A model generated the notes under the pieces. That model did no database searches and was not told the origin of the DNA. It saw nothing but the letters and a program-made list of their open reading frames with translations. The position numbers and the translations under genes were made by a program. This document shows, in pieces, positions 3,265 to 63,110 of a stretch of DNA of 64,000 nucleotides (its first letter is position 1; every line of letters starts with the position of its first letter). The DNA lies in IMG/VR virus record IMGVR_UViG_3300024317_000004, positions 1 to 64,000 of that record; one strand, 5' to 3'. This DNA is from a virus.

Positions 3265-3488
3265 GCTGCCTCCAGCCTGGTAAGCAATTCTCGCAGGGTC
3301 TTGATGACGGCCTGTCGCGGCAGATTGGAGCTAAACGCCACCTGGCGCCCTTCGAAGTCGAGGGCCAGAAGCCCGTAGCCAGTGTGCCTTGGCAGCGAAT
3401 GCGCAACGATCTTCCCGAGATCGTTGCAGAGGCGCTCCAGATCCTCGTGGCTCGTGGTTGTCACGCTGCCCTCCGCGATCGTTTCCAC
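3261..3488 (-). CDS. Hypothetical protein (75 aa)
   Basis: Coupled ORF with an alpha/beta pattern. Confidence 0.55.
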   Translation of the reverse strand: METIAEGSVTTTSHEDLERLCNDLGKIVAHSLPRHTGYGLLALDFEGRQVAFSSNLPRQAVIKTLRELLTRLEAA

Positions 3489-6193
3489 CCACGCCGGTCG
3501 ATCTCTTCTCGCACGGCCTTCAGAGCGCTCACCATGTGCGCTCCCGTTTCAACCATGCGCTCGGCACAGATCTGCGCGGCTTGCTCTTTGGTGACCAAGT
3601 CGGGGCCGTATTTGAAGAGCGTGTTGTACAGGTGCTTTGTGACCTTGCACTCCGCGAGCCTGGTCCGCAGTGCCTGCGCCGGCGGCATGGAGTCGGCCTG
3701 CTCGATTGCCGCTCTCTCGGGGTCCGCGCTGTCGTTGGCAGGAGTGCCGTTGGGCTTGGGTCCACCGCTCGGCGGCTCGGGATCCTTGGGCGCCAACGCA
3801 TTCTTGAGCCACCGAGATGCCTGTTTTGCGTCGGCCATGCCCGGCACGAGTTCCTGGACACGTCGGACCGCGACGTTGCGCAGTAGCTCGCGAACTTCTT
3901 CGGCTCGCAGATCAATGGCCGGCTTGTGCTTGCGCACGATCTCCGCCACGTCCTCGGCAGAATCAGCGAGCTCGAGCAAGTCCATGACGTCGGTGAAGAC
4001 GTTGTCGCGCGACGTCTCGCGGGTCTCGATGGCTTGAACGTGTTCATTGAGTTGGTTGCGAGTCGCGCTGGCTTTCGTGACATCGAGAACGAGCTTCTGA
4101 GCGCGATAGATGTACGTGTCGAGTCCGCCCGCTTCCTCGCCTACGGCATCCTTGTGCACGCGCCAGACACGCGCGGCTTGTAGGAGCTTGGTGTCAATGA
4201 GCTTGAGCGGCTCAAGATCCTCGCGCAAGGCGTCGAGCGCGGGGGCGTCGCTATCCCCAAGACCCGTGATGACCAACGTGTGGACTTCCTCGGGCGCGAT
4301 GTCATCACGGGCCACAGGCGGCTGCGCTGTCGTCGTGGCGTGGTTAAAAGGATCGTGCGAGCCAACGCGTGCGTCTTCTTCTGCAATGGCGCGCTTTAAC
4401 CACGCCTTGGCGTTCTTCATCTTGCCGACGTCTTCGCAGCGCTTGCATAGGACTTTCCAGGCCGCCTCGCGGTCAGCGGTCGACAGGGCCGATAGTTCTG
4501 CCCGGTGCTTGATCCAGAGCGCCACGGTCTCGCCGGGTAATTCAACCTGTTCAACGTCCGCGTAGAAGCTTGCGAGCGTGGGTGAGATCTCCGTCTCAGA
4601 AGGCGGGTCAGGCTCAACGAAGACCTCGTCAGGCTTCTGCGTAATCTTGATCGGCGCGCCCGCGCTCTTGAGATGAGCCGGGATGGTATCGAGCTCGCTT
4701 TCATCAAGCATGCCGAGCCCGAGAATGGACAACGTGGCGCGTCGCTTGGCCTTGGTGTTGCCGGTGATGGTGATACGTCCGTTCTGACGCATGACCCACG
4801 TGCCGTGCTTGGTGGTTGGGCACCAGACCGGCTCTTCGCCATCTGGCGTTAGAGACAGGTTGCTTCCGCGGACATAGGCACAATCCAAAGTCTGTTGGGT
4901 CGGGACTTCTCCCGTACTGGACATCCCCGGCTTACCAAGCGCGATTCCTTCAAGCGTGGCCAAAATGGCCCATGCCTCCATCACACCGGGCTTTCGCTTC
5001 TTCCCAAAGCGACCTTTGCTGTCCGCGTCTGCTGCCATCATTGCACTAAACATGGCGGCTCTTGCTTCCGCGGAAAGCTGGGTCACAAGAACAGGCATGT
5101 CCGCTGGCCCTTCAATGCCCGCACTCATGAGAACGAATCTCGACTCGTCAGCACTGAGATAGAACCAGTGCTGCGGCAAGCATTCGTACGAAGCCCCGCC
5201 CGGAAAGACCCGAACCGTTGGTTGGCCTACGTCCTCGCGAGCATGAAGGCCAGCACGAGCAAGCAATTCCCGAATCTCTGCAACTCGGCGAGGTTTGGAC
5301 TGACAGATCCCAAGCCGCACAAAGGTTCCTCGACGCTGAATCGTTCCATCGGTCATCACCCAACCAAGTACGGCGGCGAGTTCGGGTGTTAGTGGATGAC
5401 TACCGCCCTCCGCAGGCGCAGCCACAATTAGTCTGTGGCTTGTCCGGATCTCGTTGGCTTTAACCAGTTTTCGCTCTGGCCCTCTGTCCTTGCGAGGGCC
5501 ACGCGGAGCTGCTGCGCCTCTGCACGGCTTGTATGGTTCGGTACCAACTGCCCACGAATGGTCTTCGGTGCATCGGACCGAGAATAGGTTTTTCTCGGTC
5601 GACAGTTTGAAGACCTTTGCGTTTTCGTAAACGCTTACGTTCTCCAGCGGAACCCACTCAGAACGGCCGGTATTCACATCGTACGCAAGGACCGCTTCGC
5701 CGATCATGAGTTGATCGTGACGTTTGAATCCGCGGCGAGTCAGGATCTCACTGCCCAGCGGAACACATTCGACCTTCATCATCGCATTGAGCGGATCGCT
5801 GAGTGCAACCGTGGCCACGGCAGTCTCGGTTCTGCCATTCGGATGCGTAGCGCGACACACAGCGTAGAGAAGCTTGGTGCCTGCAAGATCGACAACGCGA
5901 GGGCCGTCAACGATCTCGCGATTGAGCCGGTGAATGGCCGCGAGCTGATCGGTCGCGCCGCGTGTGGGGTACAGAATTTCCTTGCCGTTGAGCCGTAGAA
6001 TCGCAAACGGCAATGCGGCAGGCGTGAGCCCAAGGCTTTCACAGATCTGCAGATAGAACCGCGATCGCTCCTCGGGATTGAGCGCGGATATGTCCCCGCG
6101 AAGCACAAGCGACTCGACAACCCGCGCCGTGGTCTGGGTGTCGATCTGAATGTCTGCCCGGTCACTCTTCTGGATCGACTTGACGTTACTCAT
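3461..6193 (-). CDS. Phage single-strand annealing/recombination protein (RecT/Red-beta-like) with intein and long C-terminal extension
   Basis: GDISAL...FY..ICESLGL.P...F..L.LNGK..LY; after splicing it reads NAMMKVE|TKAKRRATLSILGLGMLDESE. Located in the early-left operon. Confidence 0.7.
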   Translation of the reverse strand: MSNVKSIQKSDRADIQIDTQTTARVVESLVLRGDISALNPEERSRFYLQICESLGLTPAALPFAILRLNGKEILYPTRGATDQLAAIHRLNREIVDGPRVVDLAGTKLLYAVCRATHPNGRTETAVATVALSDPLNAMMKVECVPLGSEILTRRGFKRHDQLMIGEAVLAYDVNTGRSEWVPLENVSVYENAKVFKLSTEKNLFSVRCTEDHSWAVGTEPYKPCRGAAAPRGPRKDRGPERKLVKANEIRTSHRLIVAAPAEGGSHPLTPELAAVLGWVMTDGTIQRRGTFVRLGICQSKPRRVAEIRELLARAGLHAREDVGQPTVRVFPGGASYECLPQHWFYLSADESRFVLMSAGIEGPADMPVLVTQLSAEARAAMFSAMMAADADSKGRFGKKRKPGVMEAWAILATLEGIALGKPGMSSTGEVPTQQTLDCAYVRGSNLSLTPDGEEPVWCPTTKHGTWVMRQNGRITITGNTKAKRRATLSILGLGMLDESELDTIPAHLKSAGAPIKITQKPDEVFVEPDPPSETEISPTLASFYADVEQVELPGETVALWIKHRAELSALSTADREAAWKVLCKRCEDVGKMKNAKAWLKRAIAEEDARVGSHDPFNHATTTAQPPVARDDIAPEEVHTLVITGLGDSDAPALDALREDLEPLKLIDTKLLQAARVWRVHKDAVGEEAGGLDTYIYRAQKLVLDVTKASATRNQLNEHVQAIETRETSRDNVFTDVMDLLELADSAEDVAEIVRKHKPAIDLRAEEVRELLRNVAVRRVQELVPGMADAKQASRWLKNALAPKDPEPPSGGPKPNGTPANDSADPERAAIEQADSMPPAQALRTRLAECKVTKHLYNTLFKYGPDLVTKEQAAQICAERMVETGAHMVSALKAVREEIDRRGWKRSRRAA
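4757..5767 (-). mobile_element. Intein (337 aa) with LAGLIDADG-like homing endonuclease region
   Basis: Starts CVPLGSEILTRRGFK; block B CTEDHSW; VLGWVMTDG; block F PVWCPTT; ends ITITGN followed by T. Confidence 0.9.
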
Positions 6194-6371
6194 CGCTCCC
6201 ACCGCCCTCCTGCCTCGCCCAGTGCCTCAGTACTCGCTCCAGTGCTCTACATGCCTTGTTGCACCGCTCGCCCGCGTACTCGTCATCCTCGCTGTCGAGT
6301 AGATCCAGCGTGACCTTGTCCACAAGCTCGCGCGCCTGCAGGATTGCCTTCTTGCGCTCCTCGGGGCTCAT
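6186..6371 (-). CDS. Hypothetical protein (61 aa)
   Basis: MSPEERKKAIL...; its 3' end supplies the GGAGG RBS of the next gene. Confidence 0.5.
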   Translation of the reverse strand: MSPEERKKAILQARELVDKVTLDLLDSEDDEYAGERCNKACRALERVLRHWARQEGGGSDE

Positions 6372-53962: not shown

Positions 53963-54664
53963 GTGCAGTCGATGGACACACGCAAGCATGCCCTGCCGCC
54001 CAGAGCAAGGGACCTTACGAAAGAGTCTCCGTTCGGTCGTTTGACCGTTATCGAGTACGCTGGCCTTACAGCAACCGGCAAACACAGAAGACCGCTTTGG
54101 CGGTGTCGATGCGAATGCGGAAAGATCTGCATCATACGGGCCAGCAGTCTGGTGAAAGGCGCCACTACATCCTGCGGATGCCTGCACAAGGAAGTTATTC
54201 TAAAGGCCGTCACGAAACACGGGCATCTCATCGGAGGAATGCCCCCAGAATACAGAAGCTGGGCAAAAGCCAAGTCTCGTTGCCACACGAAGAGTGACCA
54301 TTCCTTTGCCGAGTATGGCGCACGCGGCATCTGCATGTGTAGCCGTTGGCGCGATAGCTTCGCGGCATTCTACGAAGACATGGGGACGCGGCCGTCCGCG
54401 AAGCATTCCATTGATCGAAAGAATGGCGATCTTGGATACTGGTGCGGCCGCTGCGAAGAGTGCACAAGGAACGGCTGGATTGCCAACTGTCGCTGGGCAA
54501 CTCCGACACAGCAAAGTCGCAACCGGGCTCATGTTCGAAAGATCGCTTACAAAGGGCAGGAGTTGCTTCTGCCTGAATGGGCCGAGAAGCTAGGCATTCC
54601 CTACCGGACTCTGTACGACCGCCTCAAAAGAGGCTGGTCCGTTGACCGGGCTCTTAAAAAGTAG
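53963..54664 (+). CDS. HNH-type homing endonuclease
   Basis: FGRLTV, W.CRCECG, SCGC, YGARGI..C.RW, SIDR, NCRWAT..QQ.RN motifs. Confidence 0.9.
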   Translation: MQSMDTRKHALPPRARDLTKESPFGRLTVIEYAGLTATGKHRRPLWRCRCECGKICIIRASSLVKGATTSCGCLHKEVILKAVTKHGHLIGGMPPEYRSWAKAKSRCHTKSDHSFAEYGARGICMCSRWRDSFAAFYEDMGTRPSAKHSIDRKNGDLGYWCGRCEECTRNGWIANCRWATPTQQSRNRAHVRKIAYKGQELLLPEWAEKLGIPYRTLYDRLKRGWSVDRALKK

Positions 54665-56949: not shown

Positions 56950-57978
56950 TTGACGACTTCGATTGCGATTTTCCACAAAGACCTGAGCCAAGCGAGCGCG
57001 CGCTATTCACACATTGCGCTTGGCGTCGGCGCCATGCACACCGCAAAGGTCCTGCGGGCACACGGCATTCGCGCGCGGGTGTTTGCCGTGAAGACCCCGG
57101 AGCAGATCGCCGAGATTCTCTCGACACACGGTCCAGTCAAGTTCGCAGTGCTCGAAGCGCCGTGGATCAAAACAAAGGCCATCGAAGAGCTAATCAGCCT
57201 GTTCCCGTCCACCGAGTTTCTGCTGCGCTGCCATTCACAAGTGGCATTTTTGCAGGTCGATCAAAACGCGGTCCGCCTGGTCCGGGAAGCGTTGCGCTTG
57301 CAAGAGATCAGCACGAACTTCCGCGTCTGTGGCAATTCCAAGCGGCTCTGCGATTTCCTTCGGGTCGCGTACGGATCACAGTGCCTCTTGCTGCCAAACC
57401 TGTACGACATTCATCGCGAAAAGCGACGGCACCGACCCTTGCCACGCGTCGGTCCCATCAAGATCGGATCGTTTGGCGCGAGCCGAATCCTCAAGTTCCA
57501 TTCGACGGCTGCTGCCGCCGCCCTGATGGTCGCAAGAAACCGCGGCACGGACCTAAGCTTCTATCTCAACGTCGGACGCGATGACCCTGGCGAGTGGATC
57601 CTCAACGCGATCCGCCAGATGTTTGCAGACGTGCCGTGGGCCAAGCTCATCGAGATTCCGTGGTGCCCATGGCCAGAGTTCCGTCATCAGATTGCGACGA
57701 TGGACGTGTGTCTACAGCTCTCGGCGACCGAGAGTTTCAACATCGTGACCGCTGATGCGGTTGCGGAAGGTGTCCCGAGCGTCGTAGGCCCTGCGATCGA
57801 CTGGGTGCCATCCTATTGGCAGGCGCCCATTGATGATCCTGCGGCCGTCGCACGCACCGCAGAGGTCCTGCTCGACGATCGCTATGCGCCCGAAGATGGG
57901 TTCAAGGCGCTCACAGAGTACGACGAGATGAGCGTGGCGGTGTGGAAGAAGACCCTCGCCACAGCGCTCGAGGACTAA
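56950..57978 (+). CDS. GT-B (GT4-like) glycosyltransferase
   Basis: IG.FG..R..K; MDV.LQ.S.TESFNIV.ADA...GVP.V. Confidence 0.85.
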   Translation: MTTSIAIFHKDLSQASARYSHIALGVGAMHTAKVLRAHGIRARVFAVKTPEQIAEILSTHGPVKFAVLEAPWIKTKAIEELISLFPSTEFLLRCHSQVAFLQVDQNAVRLVREALRLQEISTNFRVCGNSKRLCDFLRVAYGSQCLLLPNLYDIHREKRRHRPLPRVGPIKIGSFGASRILKFHSTAAAAALMVARNRGTDLSFYLNVGRDDPGEWILNAIRQMFADVPWAKLIEIPWCPWPEFRHQIATMDVCLQLSATESFNIVTADAVAEGVPSVVGPAIDWVPSYWQAPIDDPAAVARTAEVLLDDRYAPEDGFKALTEYDEMSVAVWKKTLATALED

Positions 57979-58796: not shown

Positions 58797-59594
58797 ATGG
58801 AAAAGTGGAGTGAACCGAAAGGGCCACCACCGCGATGGCTCGACCTTGCCGACGAAGTCACGGCCGACGAGCCGAAGCCGCCTCGTGACCAGTTCGTCGT
58901 GGCGTGCATGGAGGCGTGCTTGCGACTCGATTGCAACCCGATGCAAGCGGCAGGCGTCACGGCCAACGTGATGAACGAGAGTGCGTGGGGGCAGTCGTAT
59001 CGCGGCAATAACTTGGGTGGCTGGAAGATCTACGAGCACTACGCGATCGCGTATCGCAAGGCTCATGGCAAAGGACCACGCTGGTGGCGCGGTCCCGGCA
59101 ACAAAGCGCCTGGGGCCACACCGAAAGACCTCAAAGGGGGCGATCCGCCGTGGTGCTTCTACAGAGCGTTCGAGTCCATCGAGGACTTTCTCGCGAGCTG
59201 GCTCAAGACGTTCGTTCCAGAGCCGCCCCTTGGTACGCCCTCTCGCGAGAGCAAAGGCGATCCCGCAACGGGTGATTACCGACTTGCGGGTGAACGATTT
59301 TGGGGCCGTCGGGCCAATTGGTTCGATGCCATGGTTGCGGCCGGGTACAAGGGCTCGCGCACCGAAGCGAGTCCCGAGCAAGCGATTGCCGAACATCACA
59401 GTTTGGTGCAGTCCGCCTTAACTCGCTGGGGGCAATCACGTTTAGGCGTGACGGCTGACGGAGCCTGGGGGCCCAAAAGCAAAACGGCCTGCGCCGCGTT
59501 TCAGGCTTGGCACGGACTGTCGGTCACGAACATTCTAGACGACGAGACGCTGGTTGCTTTGGTGCACAGCAAACAACAGCCCCAACCAGAGTGA
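58797..59594 (+). CDS. Endolysin: lysozyme-like (GH73-type) domain plus peptidoglycan-binding domain
   Basis: ESAWG....NNL.G.K...YRAF.S...AGY; LGV.ADG.WGP.S......FQ..HGL. Confidence 0.8.
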   Translation: MEKWSEPKGPPPRWLDLADEVTADEPKPPRDQFVVACMEACLRLDCNPMQAAGVTANVMNESAWGQSYRGNNLGGWKIYEHYAIAYRKAHGKGPRWWRGPGNKAPGATPKDLKGGDPPWCFYRAFESIEDFLASWLKTFVPEPPLGTPSRESKGDPATGDYRLAGERFWGRRANWFDAMVAAGYKGSRTEASPEQAIAEHHSLVQSALTRWGQSRLGVTADGAWGPKSKTACAAFQAWHGLSVTNILDDETLVALVHSKQQPQPE

Positions 59595-59605
59595 CCTGGT
59601 TGGGG
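59580..59605. terminator. Hairpin at the convergence of the late operon and the array transcript
   Basis: CCCCAACCAG-agtgac-CTGGTTGGGG. Confidence 0.55.
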
Positions 59606-60374
59606 CCATTCCCTGTCCCTTCCGCTCCTTTGCAGTCCTGCCCCATCCGCTCCATTGCCATCGGTTGCAATGAGGCCCGTTCCTCTCGTAGCCCCTCCCG
59701 TCCTATCCATTCCACTCGGTTGCTGTCGCTTGCTCTCCCCTCCGTCCCCCTGCTTTGCCCGAGCCTTCGCCCGGCTCCGATGCAGCACGCTGCACCCGAG
59801 TCGAGCCACCGGCGAACCGGCGAACTCGGGGCCTTTGCGATCCTTTCCCCTGCTGTCCTGACCTGTCCGCATCCCATCGGCTCCCCTCCCCTCCCCAACG
59901 CTCCCCATTAGCGCTCGGGACGAGGCCCGGATTGCTCCGGGCGCCGTTGGGCTCCACTCCTGTCCGGTTCACTCCGTTGCCGCCCTTGCCTCTGCTTTCC
60001 GCTCCCCTCTGCCCCAATGCAGTCCGTCGTTTCCAACGCACTCGCTTGAATGCGCTCGAAACGGCGCTCGCGCGAACGCGATGCCGGCCATTCCGTTCCT
60101 CCCCGGCCCAATCATGTCATTCCCAGGCCGCTCCCATGCTCTGCAGTCGGCCCCCCTCCATCGCGTTCCGCTTCACCCCAGTACACATCCACTCCTCTCC
60201 CCTCTCCAAAGCACCTGAATGCTCTCGAGACGGGACCCGATCTCTCGGGACACGTCGCCTTTCCTCTGCGGTCCGTTCACTTGCTCTCCGGTGCCGTCCC
60301 ATCACTTCCTTTGCAGCCAACTCTCGTCCTGCCCACTCCCCGCTTTTCCTCTCCGCTCCACCCCTCTGCCGTCC
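59606..60374 (-). ncRNA. Array of about five 5-nt-periodic tracts (GGA/GCA + NN)n separated by hairpin linkers; putative guide RNA array
   Basis: Plus-strand NNTCC/NNTGC phase is held over 59609-59803, 59834-59904, 59946-60035, 60090-60205 and 60260-60374. Linkers carry stems; three share GCnCTCGrrACG. Confidence 0.75.
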
Positions 60375-60389
60375 GAAGTCTAAAAAGAA

Positions 60390-60986
60390 TTATGCGGCTT
60401 TCTTTGCTAGGTCGCCGTCCCAGCAAACGACCGCGAAAATCCCGAACGGACCACCACGCTGAACTCTGTAGTCGCCGAGACCGTTTCCGATGCCGGCCTC
60501 TTCGAGCAAGAGCCTGATAGTTGCTTCATCCAAGATCTCCGTACGCAACCGAAGATTGAACTTAGCGCTCCATTCGTCGAGCCGCGCACGATGTCTCATG
60601 ACGCGGCCTTTTGTTGCGGGAATTACGACCGCTCGGCTGTCAACCTCGAAGTCCTTTGCGCGAGTTTTTCGGTCCTTGAGATACAAGGGCACCATGTCTT
60701 CGCAAACCACGCACGCAGCGGGCACGAGATACTTTAAGGACTTGCGAGATCCTCGCTGTTTGTGTCCAGCGCCCATTTCGGCGATTGCGCGGCTAATCCC
60801 AGTACCTGCGATGCATAGTCCGCCCTTAGAGTCGCGATGCGTGCCTTTCTCGGCAATGTCTCGCGGCAACTCTGTGGTGATCTGCACGCGACGTGTTGAT
60901 TTTCCACTGTCCGCCTGCGCCTGATCGCCAAACTTGTGAATCAGCAACGGCGAAACGCCCTCGATCCAGACCTCAATCGTTTTCAC
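60390..60986 (-). CDS. Stand-alone RAMP/Cas7-like (RRM-fold) protein, putative RNA-guided effector
   Basis: N-terminal strand IEVWIEGVSPLLIH and C-terminal Gly-rich loop AGIGNGLGDYRVQRGGPFG; GGAGG RBS; flanked by pentamer arrays. Confidence 0.65.
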   Translation of the reverse strand: MKTIEVWIEGVSPLLIHKFGDQAQADSGKSTRRVQITTELPRDIAEKGTHRDSKGGLCIAGTGISRAIAEMGAGHKQRGSRKSLKYLVPAACVVCEDMVPLYLKDRKTRAKDFEVDSRAVVIPATKGRVMRHRARLDEWSAKFNLRLRTEILDEATIRLLLEEAGIGNGLGDYRVQRGGPFGIFAVVCWDGDLAKKAA

Positions 60987-61000
60987 TTTGCCTCCATTAA

Positions 61001-61074
61001 GCCCTTTCGGGCCCCTTCCATTCCCCCGCTCTCCATCCCCACCACTTGCTCTCCTTCGTGTTCCAGTCCAACGC
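61001..61074 (-). ncRNA. Leader pentamer tract (13 units) ending in a GCCC-GAAA-GGGC hairpin
   Basis: Minus strand GCGTT GGACT GGAAC ACGAA GGAGA GCAAG TGGTG GGGAT GGAGA GCGGG GGAAT GGAAG GGGCC. Confidence 0.7.
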
Positions 61075-61078
61075 GCAC

Positions 61079-61106
61079 ACTATACGTACTTTGTACGTAC
61101 AAGCAA
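61079..61106 (-). promoter_or_regulatory. Promoter of the RAMP-like/array unit with palindromic operator
   Basis: TTGCTT-16 nt-TATAGT; spacer holds TACGTAC-TTT-GTACGTA. Confidence 0.7.
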
Positions 61107-61107
61107 G

Positions 61108-61272
61108 TTACTTCTTTACTTCTCGTAGCAATCGTCTTGCTTCGAACAACGCAATGCGTCTGACGAACGACGACACATCTTCACCTGATAATTCTGCGGC
61201 TTTCGCGAGATCTCGCTTTTCCGCTTCCGTGAGACGCAACTCGAGACGCGCCGACCGACCGGACTCAACCAT
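61108..61272 (-). CDS. Ribbon-helix-helix (DUF1778-like) regulator, 54 aa, absent from the ORF track
   Basis: MVESGRSARLELRLTEAEKRDLAKAAELSGEDVSSFVRRIALFEARRLLREVKK. Confidence 0.75.
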   Translation of the reverse strand: MVESGRSARLELRLTEAEKRDLAKAAELSGEDVSSFVRRIALFEARRLLREVKK

Positions 61273-61971
61273 AGGCCAATCATACGGCTACCATACGTAC
61301 ATGGCCACGGCGATATCACGGAAGGTTACAGAAGCACGTAAAACGACGGCGCGGCTCAAGGAGCTTGGCTACAAGCTAGGGCAGTGGGTAGACGCCCCGC
61401 CAGCCGACGTGCCATAGTTCGACCGTTCGGCACGACGTTGTCCGTGACGTGTTGAGCTCCTGAGACGGCCTGGTCACCCGCCAGGCCGTTTTGCTTTTGC
61501 GCTAGACATCCCGCCGTCACGCTGGCACAGTCCCCATCAGAAGCGTTTCTCGCAAGAGGAACTACCGCACGATTCGCCCTGGCCCTCACCGGCTAGGGCG
61601 TTTTGCTATTTCTGGCACGCCGTGCGACGGTCCATCGTACACTTTCACACGTAGATGGGACTGATACGAGGCCTTGGCATGGTGCTGAGGCCTTTTGTTT
61701 TTGTGGCACACTGGAGCCAAGGGATCCGCTGCTCTGGATTATCCCGGGGATAGCAGGTCGCTTACCTAAGGCACGCCGGTCCGTGGCACAGAACCGCGGG
61801 CCGGGGTGTTATGCTTGCGTCAATCCGTTTGCCTGGGCGATGGGCCCGCGCACGTAACAGGCGTAGGGCCACACGGAGTGGGATCCGCGTTACGCGGGTC
61901 GTGCACAGACCCGGAGGCGAAAGCAGCCGGGTGCTTGTGCATGCGAGTTTGCGGGGAGTTTGAGGGAGCCT

Positions 61972-62850
61972 TCACATCTCGCCCAACGCTCGTGCCATGG
62001 CCTCGGCGACGCGTTTCCAGTCGTATCCCTGCACGTGAATCGTCACGCTCGCTTCGACGGTCGAGCCGTACGTAATCTGGATCTCTTGCCGCCGCTCAGT
62101 CGCATCGACGGTAACGACGCGACCGTTGATCAGTGCGCTGTACCGTCCCCCGTTCAGATCTTCCCATACGACATCGCTCATAGTTTTTGTGTCCCCTTCC
62201 CCTTCCAACAACCTCGTTTGCAGTTCTGCCGTCTCGGCATACATGAGGCATTTGCCGGTAAACTTACCATTGCTATAGATTGGCAAATCGTGGAATGGGT
62301 ATTGTTCCAAGGATCGCCTTACCATCTCATTGGTCTCGGCAGCATTGAGGTACTGTCTCGTCTTATTCAACCACACGTACTCGTCATCCGTAGTTGCCGA
62401 TGGGCCAGAAACAAAAGCATACGCTTGTCCGTAGGCTATAGCGTTAACGAGGACGCTGCTTACGCCAAACATTTTGCCAATCTTCTTCGTGGATAGGCTG
62501 TGTGTTCTGTAGATTTTTCTAATCTCTCTTACCTCATCGTCACTCAGCTTCCTGTATTGCCTCCCCTTCTCGATCATGTCCTTTGTGTTGGCTTTAGAGT
62601 CGCCTACGAATAGGTGGCCCCAGTTGCAGCAGGGCGGGTTGTCGCATGAATGGCAGATGAACATTCCGTCGGGAATAGGACCAACAGCGAGTTCCCACGC
62701 GGCCCTGTGAGCCGCGTATTGTTTCTTGCGATCTTCCCAGTAAACGCGGCCGTACCCGTTTCTATTTGTAGGCCCAGTCCACACGATGCACCCGCTATCG
62801 TTGTCGTGGGTGCACTTCGCATAAAGATCGCTGATCGTTTTCAGCATCAT
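61972..62850 (-). CDS. HNH homing endonuclease with HTH and extra C-terminal region
   Basis: CIVWTG...GYG...AHR.AW....G.IP.G..ICH.CDNP.CCN..HL..G....N..D...KGR. Confidence 0.9.
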   Translation of the reverse strand: MMLKTISDLYAKCTHDNDSGCIVWTGPTNRNGYGRVYWEDRKKQYAAHRAAWELAVGPIPDGMFICHSCDNPPCCNWGHLFVGDSKANTKDMIEKGRQYRKLSDDEVREIRKIYRTHSLSTKKIGKMFGVSSVLVNAIAYGQAYAFVSGPSATTDDEYVWLNKTRQYLNAAETNEMVRRSLEQYPFHDLPIYSNGKFTGKCLMYAETAELQTRLLEGEGDTKTMSDVVWEDLNGGRYSALINGRVVTVDATERRQEIQITYGSTVEASVTIHVQGYDWKRVAEAMARALGEM

Positions 62851-62858
62851 CTTGGCCT

Positions 62859-63110
62859 CTAACTTCCTGCCCGTTTCTTTGATTTCTTCTCCTGACCCCA
62901 TCCTGGCTTGCGCAACGTAAGCCCCTCGGCAAGCTCGGGCTGTTCTTGCACCCACGTCTGCAGAGTGCGCCTGCCGATCCCGAGCCTCTCGGCGGCTTTG
63001 GGCACGCTGCCTTCGGCCTTCAGCGCCCTGCTGATCTTCAGCCTGAACGCCTCGGGGTCCGTTGCTCGCAGGGCTAGTAAAGCGTGCGTGGCGGGATGGG
63101 TGATAGCCAT
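62859..63110 (-). CDS. Fis-type HTH regulator
   Basis: ALKAEGSVPKAAERLGIGRRTLQTW. Confidence 0.8.
   Translation of the reverse strand: MAITHPATHALLALRATDPEAFRLKISRALKAEGSVPKAAERLGIGRRTLQTWVQEQPELAEGLTLRKPGWGQEKKSKKRAGS

Follow-up and report, generated by a model that had tools for sequence, protein, structure and literature searches.

What a phage does with a lone protein gene set among non-coding tracts that repeat every five bases is the question raised by one locus of IMG/VR virus record IMGVR_UViG_3300024317_000004. The record is 72,417 bp long and 100% complete by CheckV. Its first 64,000 nucleotides are the window analyzed here, and positions refer to that window unless the record is named. 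The locus is a minus-strand unit spanning 59566-61307, which holds a ribbon-helix-helix (RHH) gene, a promoter-like stretch, a leader array, a ribosome site, the lone gene, six downstream arrays and a terminator, in that order. Our analysis indicates with high confidence that a temperate, myovirus-like soil phage carries here a VIPR (Viral Interference Programmable Repeat) system. The locus is real and intact, the kind of system is already known, and the GGA/GCA repeat variant that it carries is unusual. VIPR was first published in 2026 (10.64898/2026.04.26.720920). The initial annotation of this DNA, made from the letters alone, had pointed to phage systems of that name that combine a RAMP protein with pentamers. 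It did so correctly, and the locus does not, therefore, represent a new kind of system.

The protein was examined by homology and by structure prediction. The product of the gene, named vipr here, belongs to phrog_4652, a family of unknown function (E 2.2e-17), and had no match in Pfam, NCBIfam or PADLOC. A single-sequence phmmer search of PDB sequences found 36pp_D, the 'SUSP1 Vipr protein', at E 7.3e-4. With a 40-sequence profile, the same entry was matched over its full length (E 4.1e-9, residues 1-184 against 1-187) and was the only PDB sequence at E <= 1. The residues with which SUSP1 Vipr binds the GG of its RNA, H17, R138, D177, W178 and R179, align with H17, R133, D172, Y173 and R174 of our protein. 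These five are invariant or nearly so in the family alignment, and Y173 keeps the aromatic side chain. The AlphaFold model (pLDDT 86.2, pTM 0.81) contains an RRM core and a Gly-rich loop (168-183), and its long beta-hairpin (114-136) corresponds to the thumb. A RAMP/Cas7-like fold had been proposed at the outset, and both the predicted structure and the profile match to SUSP1 Vipr agree with it.

The family is large and mostly unnamed. In a collection clustered at 90%, 360 relatives were listed at E <= 1e-3, nearly all of them unnamed metagenome proteins, and a profile search returned 6,136 clusters at 50% identity, 1,980 of them at E <= 1e-10. Homologues in cultured phages are distant (23-29% identity) and annotated as hypothetical; they occur in Pseudomonas LESphi2, in Gordonia UmaThurman, Pipp, Trine, Ecliptus and ODay, and in Listonella phiHSIC. 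SUSP1 Vipr was absent from the BLAST-level matches because the identity between the two proteins is too low. Also, a look-up of three relatives in nr gave no link to the five founding VIPR UniProt entries.

Next, the periodicity of the flanking DNA was measured. Same-base autocorrelation over 59600-60389 reached 0.40-0.43 at lags 5, 10, 15 and 20, compared to 0.24-0.33 at the other lags up to 20, and these peaks had z scores of 6.6-8.1 against 200 shuffles. The lag-5 peak expected for the array region was thus present. The vipr gene itself (60390-60986) gave no period-5 peak, and a sliding scan of the whole 64 kb found strong period 5 only at 59500-60300. The 94-nt leader on the other side of the gene is below significance for period 5 due to its short length; a periodic hidden Markov model (HMM) set 15 pentamers there. 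Tandem Repeats Finder did not report the array, which was to be expected of copies less than 70% alike.

The composition of the pentamer was calculated from 106 curated pentamers. The triplets were GGA in 51, GCA in 18, GGG in 13 and others in 24. Information content was 1.19, 1.08 and 1.05 bits at positions 1-3 and fell to 0.10 and 0.03 bits at positions 4-5, where all 16 dinucleotides were present. Position 1 was G in 86%, and position 2 was G in 77% and C in 20%. Position 3 was A in 78%, G in 17% and C or T in 5%, so that 101 of the 106 carried a purine there. These values bear out the earlier description of a semi-constant triplet, mostly GGA or GCA, followed by a free dinucleotide.

Seven units were resolved by HMM segmentation and the pentamer list, one 5' of vipr and six 3' of it, with 8-23 pentamers each and a hairpin at the end of each. 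All lie on the minus strand, as does every feature described in this paragraph and the next. U1, in the vipr 5' leader, holds 11 pentamers (61015..61069). The initial annotation had counted 13 in this leader, followed by a hairpin; the hairpin stands, and the count is 11 clean pentamers or 13-15 if the flanking ones are included. After the U1 tail comes the GGAGG ribosome site (60991-60995), which was read from the sequence, and then the confirmed open reading frame (ORF) of vipr, 198 aa with a GTG start at 60986. Downstream of the gene are U2 with 23 pentamers (60260..60374), U3 with 3 + 19 and a one-base slip at 60185 (60090..60204), U4 with 14 (59956..60025), U5 with 5 + 7 and a one-base slip at 59869 (59834..59894), U6 with 16 (59679..59758) and U7 with 8 (59609..59648). 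About five downstream tracts of 15-39 pentamers had been described before; six units of 8-23 replace them.

A hairpin or hairpin cluster follows every unit, and these tails are GC-rich and long (16-75 nt). T1 (60999..61014) is a single hairpin, GGGCCC-GAAA-GGGCUU, whose fold is weak alone (-9.9 kcal/mol, z -1.45). T2 (60205..60259; -25.2 kcal/mol, z -2.9), T3 (60030..60089; -30.5 kcal/mol, z -3.2) and T4 (59895..59955; -25.6 kcal/mol, z -1.6) have two hairpins each. Only these three share the motif G-U-Y-Y-C-G-A-G ... U-U-G-G, which reads GUCUCGAGAGC...GCUUUGG in the second hairpin of T2, GUUUCGAGCGC...GCGUUGG in T3 and GUCCCGAGCGC...GCGUUGG in T4. T5 (59759..59833) is larger and branched (-45.2 kcal/mol, z -2.25), and T6 (59649..59678) is again a single hairpin, CAUUGC...GCAAUG (-10.8 kcal/mol, z -1.6). 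The tail of U7, T7, is at the same time the intrinsic terminator (59566..59610), with a stem of 16 pairs (59575-59610) and a T-rich run after it (-27 kcal/mol, z -4.7); its stability was matched by 0 of 200 shuffles, and the terminal hairpin is confirmed. When the spacers were searched against Rfam, only a sub-threshold chance match to a eukaryotic long non-coding RNA model was returned and no hammerhead was found.

The association between the gene and the tracts was then examined across relatives. The comparison drew on 80 viral contigs and 16 genome contigs with a gene for a relative, 96 loci in all with 77 distinct gene sequences. Tracts with GG at period 5 were counted if they were at least 50 nt long, within 400 nt of the gene and on the gene's strand. 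Such tracts were present in 69 of the 77 distinct loci, as was expected of true homologues. They covered 35.5% of the gene-strand flanks; coverage was 0.2% on the opposite strand and 0.28% at distances above 1.6 kb from the gene. These data bear on whether the tracts are RNA guides at all. Long ORFs overlap them on both strands and GG every five bases could form G-quadruplexes, so that low-complexity coding sequence or G-rich structural DNA (a G-quadruplex, a packaging signal or a replication signal) might be considered in their place. However, no reading frame can have a period of 5, and none of the four overlapping ORFs matched a PHROG family, in agreement with the earlier view that they are noise. 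The tracts are also strand-specific and track the Vipr family across phages whose neighbors are otherwise unrelated, and the homologous tracts of SUSP1 are, by experiment, protein-bound RNAs (10.64898/2026.04.26.720920). A coding or structural role for the tracts is, in our estimate, extremely improbable.

Eight loci had no such tract. Three are cut loci or partial genes (L063, L088, L089), three have GC-type arrays that a search for GG does not count (L015, L065, L067), and the last two are L091 and L093. The latter are Planctomycetota contigs from metagenome-assembled genomes (MAGs), with Vipr homologues of 30% identity and no recognizable period-5 array in their DNA examined; they could be array-less copies, or their guides could lie elsewhere. 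The GC-type arrays of the Vipr clade repeat GCC/NN or GCM/NN and are located at L067:2810-2915, L065:3640-3760 and L015:2925-2985. The protein of L067 has Q at the H17 position, and that of L015 has A at the D172 position.

The closest characterized system is the type II VIPR of Escherichia phage SUSP1 and a Pseudomonas fulva prophage (PDB 36pp). In SUSP1, RNAs of about 100 nt with 9-16 GGY/NN repeats and a 3' tail copurify with Vipr, and these vrRNAs come from one upstream and three downstream positions (10.64898/2026.04.26.720920). Cryo-electron microscopy of the complex showed one protomer per repeat, with GGY buried and NN presented (10.64898/2026.04.26.720927). The complex binds double-stranded DNA (dsDNA) with NN pairs one skipped base apart and silences transcription (10.64898/2026.04.26.720927; 10.64898/2026.04.26.720920). 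Our locus shares with this system a stand-alone RAMP protein of about 200 aa with full-length profile homology and conserved GG-contacting residues, one vrRNA upstream and an array downstream, pentamers of three fixed and two variable bases with a tail after each run, and a phage-borne setting without CRISPR or cas genes. It differs from SUSP1 in several respects. The triplet is G-G/C-A compared to GGY, units reach 23 pentamers compared to 9-16, the G-loop has a 4-residue insertion, and the tails are unit-specific hairpins compared to one invariant pseudoknot tail. VIPR types I-VII are assigned by accessory genes (vap1-6), and no accessory gene conserved among the relatives compared was found at our locus.

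Three other groups of systems were compared. The metagenomic Vipr clade is the same protein family at 40-59% identity (E 1e-49 to 1e-67), with a lone gene and arrays among varied phage genes. Its members are IMG/VR contigs, MAGs of Phycisphaerae, Chthoniobacterales, Hyphomicrobium and others, and nr entries annotated as hypothetical, among them OHD23807.1, MBN1632134.1 and NQY92277.1. In two of these relatives, L001 and L081, one upstream unit is followed by 6-7 downstream units of 11-21 pentamers with short, invariant tails between them. A YYTCGAG word similar to part of the motif shared by T2-T4 recurs in L001, within its invariant tails, and hints that the tails have a common origin. Second, period-5 arrays with a non-GGY triplet near Vipr-like folds were reported from a language-model study (10.64898/2026.10.21.760802), as at our locus; the triplets named are GAC, CAC, WGT and TGH, and GGA/GCA is not among the motifs in the accessible part of its text. 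Third, the Csm3/Cas7 proteins of CRISPR type III (Csm3/Cmr4) use a 6-nt step with 5 pairing bases, whereas VIPR uses a 5-nt step with 2 and, as published, reads target dsDNA with gaps. Our locus has no Cas model match, no CRISPR repeats and no other cas genes. No 20-mer is repeated at CRISPR-like spacing in the 72 kb, and neither cas genes nor defense models were matched in Pfam, NCBIfam and PADLOC scans. The lack of CRISPR repeats and of cas1/2 had been noted from the letters alone.

By homology with SUSP1, a mechanism can be proposed for the locus. From a single minus-strand transcription unit would come Vipr and, after processing, seven vrRNAs: that of the 5' leader and the six encoded downstream of the stop codon. 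Vipr protomers would polymerize along each vrRNA, one per pentamer, burying the fixed G-G/C-A trinucleotide and exposing the two variable bases. These bases would pair with dsDNA that carries the same dinucleotides with one skipped base between them, a rule that may hold for the whole clade. The filament would keep the gene to which it binds from being transcribed, and this gene would most likely belong to a rival mobile element of the same host. The initial annotation had likewise suggested one subunit per pentamer, a bound triplet, displayed NN and silencing rather than cutting. These properties were demonstrated for the SUSP1 homologue by cryo-electron microscopy and reporter assays, and they would extend to our locus by homology.

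Silencing fits the locus because its plan and guanine-binding residues are kept and because no nuclease partner is conserved across relatives. The bearing of the last point is on an HNH endonuclease gene of 327 aa (61972-62955, minus strand; HNH_3 E 4.3e-12), which lies about 700 nt upstream of the locus in the same orientation and might serve as a vap nuclease, so that this VIPR would cut. HNH-containing vap proteins and nuclease-bearing VIPR types III-V do exist (10.64898/2026.04.26.720920). However, the HNH protein resembles ordinary phage homing endonucleases (PHROG HNH families to 4e-31, PADLOC 'HEase'), and the gap of 700 nt and the RHH gene separate it from the locus. In addition, the phage has a second homing-type HNH gene at 53963-54664 (plus strand). 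Among the 44 related loci with full flanks, no neighboring gene family recurred in more than four; the families scanned were DNA polymerase A, portal, ERF, ssDNA-binding, DUF3310 and methyltransferase proteins, with no HNH. We, therefore, regard a cutting system built on this gene as very unlikely. A helix-turn-helix gene at 62859-63110 precedes the upstream HNH gene.

Several observations weigh against the conclusion that this is a VIPR system, or at least one that works as SUSP1 does. The fixed trinucleotide differs from the published GGY, and the canonical GGY was not found as the fixed triplet among the 106 pentamers. Even G-[GC]-[AG] fits only 84 of them, leaving 22 off the pattern, and one-base slips interrupt two units. 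The tails vary by unit, unlike the invariant tails of SUSP1, L001 and L081. In SUSP1, helix-1 (E71, M72) and the G-loop form a pocket for the third base that is described as sterically excluding purines (10.64898/2026.04.26.720927). Position 3 is nearly always a purine here and, therefore, the binding mode of base 3 must differ. No RNA run with matching DNA was among the sequencing runs listed. Finally, searches of the phage's own genome, of the related loci and, with seeds, of contigs turned up no natural target. The triplet is best taken as a variant feature rather than a ground for exclusion, since the founding paper allows a 'related consensus' beside GGY, namely NNNGG, YNNNG and NNNNG (10.64898/2026.04.26.720920).

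The irregular pentamers, the slips and the heterogeneous tails could also come from a decaying or orphaned copy, in which the gene may be intact and the arrays have drifted and are no longer loaded onto Vipr. When related arrays of 25 pentamers or more were classified, 67 of the 73 were GGY and none was GGA, the rest being GCC or GCM (L065, L067 and, by eye, L015), unclear or absent; against this background the GGA/GCA array of our locus stands apart. The drift would have to be non-random, as position 3 is A in most pentamers and a purine in nearly all while positions 4-5 stay free, a pattern indicative of selection for another fixed triplet. The vipr gene is intact with its key residues kept, and frequent internal degeneracy of vrRNAs has been published (10.64898/2026.04.26.720920). 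Moreover, GGA/NN arrays with clean invariant tails stand beside other Vipr-profile matches. Among 119 viral loci with six consecutive GGANN, a Vipr-profile match was found beside an extended array in L138, L145 and L205, and L193 has a GGANN array on a short locus. On these grounds, we consider a decayed copy highly improbable.

The arrays just mentioned are at L205:300-648, L138:1100-1380 and 1995-2040, L193:295-510 and L145:1800-2140. In L205, the GGA/NN units are clean and are separated by an invariant tail of about 32 nt. The Vipr-like proteins of L205 and L138 have a short, SUSP1-like G-loop (GLSD[WY]RP.[FY]GRF).

A functional VIPR with a changed triplet leads to a further proposal. There are 62 columns in which at least 85% of the other 38 aligned relatives agree, and at 8 of these Vipr and its 86% twin P0002 differ: K18, H50, A60, G63, A69, A164, V175 and Q176. 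Five of the eight (A60, G63, A69, V175, Q176) belong to helix-1 or flank the G-loop, and the SUSP1 counterpart of G63 is M72. From the alignment we infer that these five substitutions may re-tune the base-3 pocket for adenine. The step from GGY to GGA/GCA might then be a switch of the 'handle' code rather than drift, such that this Vipr loads only its own guides and is deaf to the GGY guides of rivals; we put this forward tentatively, as less likely than not. Satellites and VIPR-null phages are reported to hijack Vipr with decoy or orphan vrRNAs (10.64898/2026.10.15.759431). If the proposal is true, such decoys would not load, fixed triplets would diversify in an arms race, and Vipr/vrRNA pairs would be naturally orthogonal.

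The phage itself was characterized by its genes and its occurrence. Its structural and packaging genes include those for terminase, portal, major head, tail sheath and baseplate proteins, and an endolysin gene is convergent on the VIPR locus. A tyrosine-type integrase of 419 aa is encoded outside the window (record 69255-70514, minus strand; L103:5255-6514; phrog_1 E 2.4e-41). The integrase together with the contractile-tail structural genes indicates a temperate, contractile-tailed (myovirus-like) phage. A NUDIX hydrolase gene and a phosphatase-like gene are near the integrase. Near-identical pieces were found in soil metagenome runs of three studies, of which one may be the origin of the record; contigs from two further soil runs were near-identical fragments that are uninformative on NN variability. 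Homologues of the major capsid protein were almost all unnamed metagenome proteins, and the one that was named is from a Kofleriaceae MAG (46% identity).

Published natural targets of VIPR are satellites and rival prophages (10.64898/2026.04.26.720920), and targets were sought for our guides. With the skip rule, the own 72-kb genome and the 96 related loci gave no excess of sites with at least 80% NN match over shuffled guides. The best sites in the own genome at skips 0-2 matched at 0.57-0.79, equal to the shuffled-guide controls. Perfect NN matches in the own genome were the arrays themselves and occurred only at skip 3, so the gapped rule would spare the guide genes. The full U1 pattern with up to 3 mismatches had 0 matches in the own genome. 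In viral contigs, exact patterns of 11 NN of U1 and of the 3'-proximal 10 NN of U4, U6, U2 and U3b had 0 matches each, and the 10 NN of U4 had 0 exact matches in metagenome contigs. Shorter seeds produced chance matches, which were rejected: one for an 8-NN seed of U4 in viral contigs, whose extension agreed at 2 of 12 bases, and five for a 9-NN seed of U6 in metagenome contigs, whose extensions agreed at 2-5 of 14 bases. The contig searches used exact seeds, while the published method tolerates 20% mismatches, and their blank results say little for that reason.

These searches also bear on whether the system regulates genes of the phage itself or of its host, such as those of the lysis-lysogeny decision, rather than rival mobile elements. 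The phage is temperate, vrRNAs of the P. fulva clade often match lysogeny-switch regulators (10.64898/2026.04.26.720920), and the searches run did not find a rival target. The own genome, however, has no site with at least 80% NN match at skips 0-2 and does no better than shuffled guides, and we consider self or host regulation unlikely. A competing mobile element remains the probable target of the proposed VIPR system.

Control of the locus was considered last. The 54-aa RHH gene lies directly 5' of it (61108..61272, minus strand; Pfam TacA1 E 1.1e-7, NikA-like E 1.1e-6), and its NCBIfam matches are MobA/RelB-type and sub-threshold. No homologue was found in the 96 related loci at E < 0.1 by tblastn; the gene possibly encodes a local regulator and is not a conserved partner of vipr. 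A promoter for vipr had been placed at 61106-61079, minus strand. This candidate (61079..61106: TTGCTT, 16 nt, TATAGT) has 8 of 12 consensus matches, below the scan threshold of 9, and the only sigma-70-like call in 59300-61500 precedes the RHH gene instead (61279..61307, minus strand: TGGCCA, 17 nt, TATGAT; 9 of 12). The latter site holds one copy of GTACGTAT (61300-61293), and the spacer of the candidate vipr promoter holds a possible operator, GTACGTAC + GTACGTAT (61100-61083, minus strand), as read from the sequence. Thus three minus-strand copies of GTACGTA(C/T) lie within 218 nt, the first ahead of the RHH gene and the others within the spacer (61083-61100, 61293-61300). GTACGTA has 13 site starts in the 72-kb genome when both strands and overlapping palindromic copies are counted. 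This clustering was reached by 0 of 20,000 random placements of 13 starts, a count that the palindrome inflates. A reasonable guess is that the RHH protein represses the locus through GTACGTA as a candidate operator. Elsewhere in the window, a 342-aa protein is encoded just upstream of the lysis region (56950-57978, plus strand); its match to 'GT4 glycosyltransferase in conflict systems' (E 0.003) was weak and below threshold. At 913 aa, the ORF at 3461-6202 (minus strand) is the longest in the window, and it matched no PHROG family at E <= 1e-5.

Only recently described, VIPR is related to CRISPR and possibly ancestral to it, and it reads dsDNA through a gapped two-in-three code. The locus adds a complete example from an uncultivated temperate soil phage and from a large clade without a cultured member. 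Its comparative value is that of a GGA/GCA user among GGY relatives, with protein changes in the elements that form the third-base pocket in the solved SUSP1 structure. It thus offers a naturally occurring case in which to test how the fixed triplet is chosen by Vipr proteins and whether orthogonal protein/guide pairs exist. Such pairs would matter for phage-phage conflict and for the parallel use of several VIPR silencers as tools.

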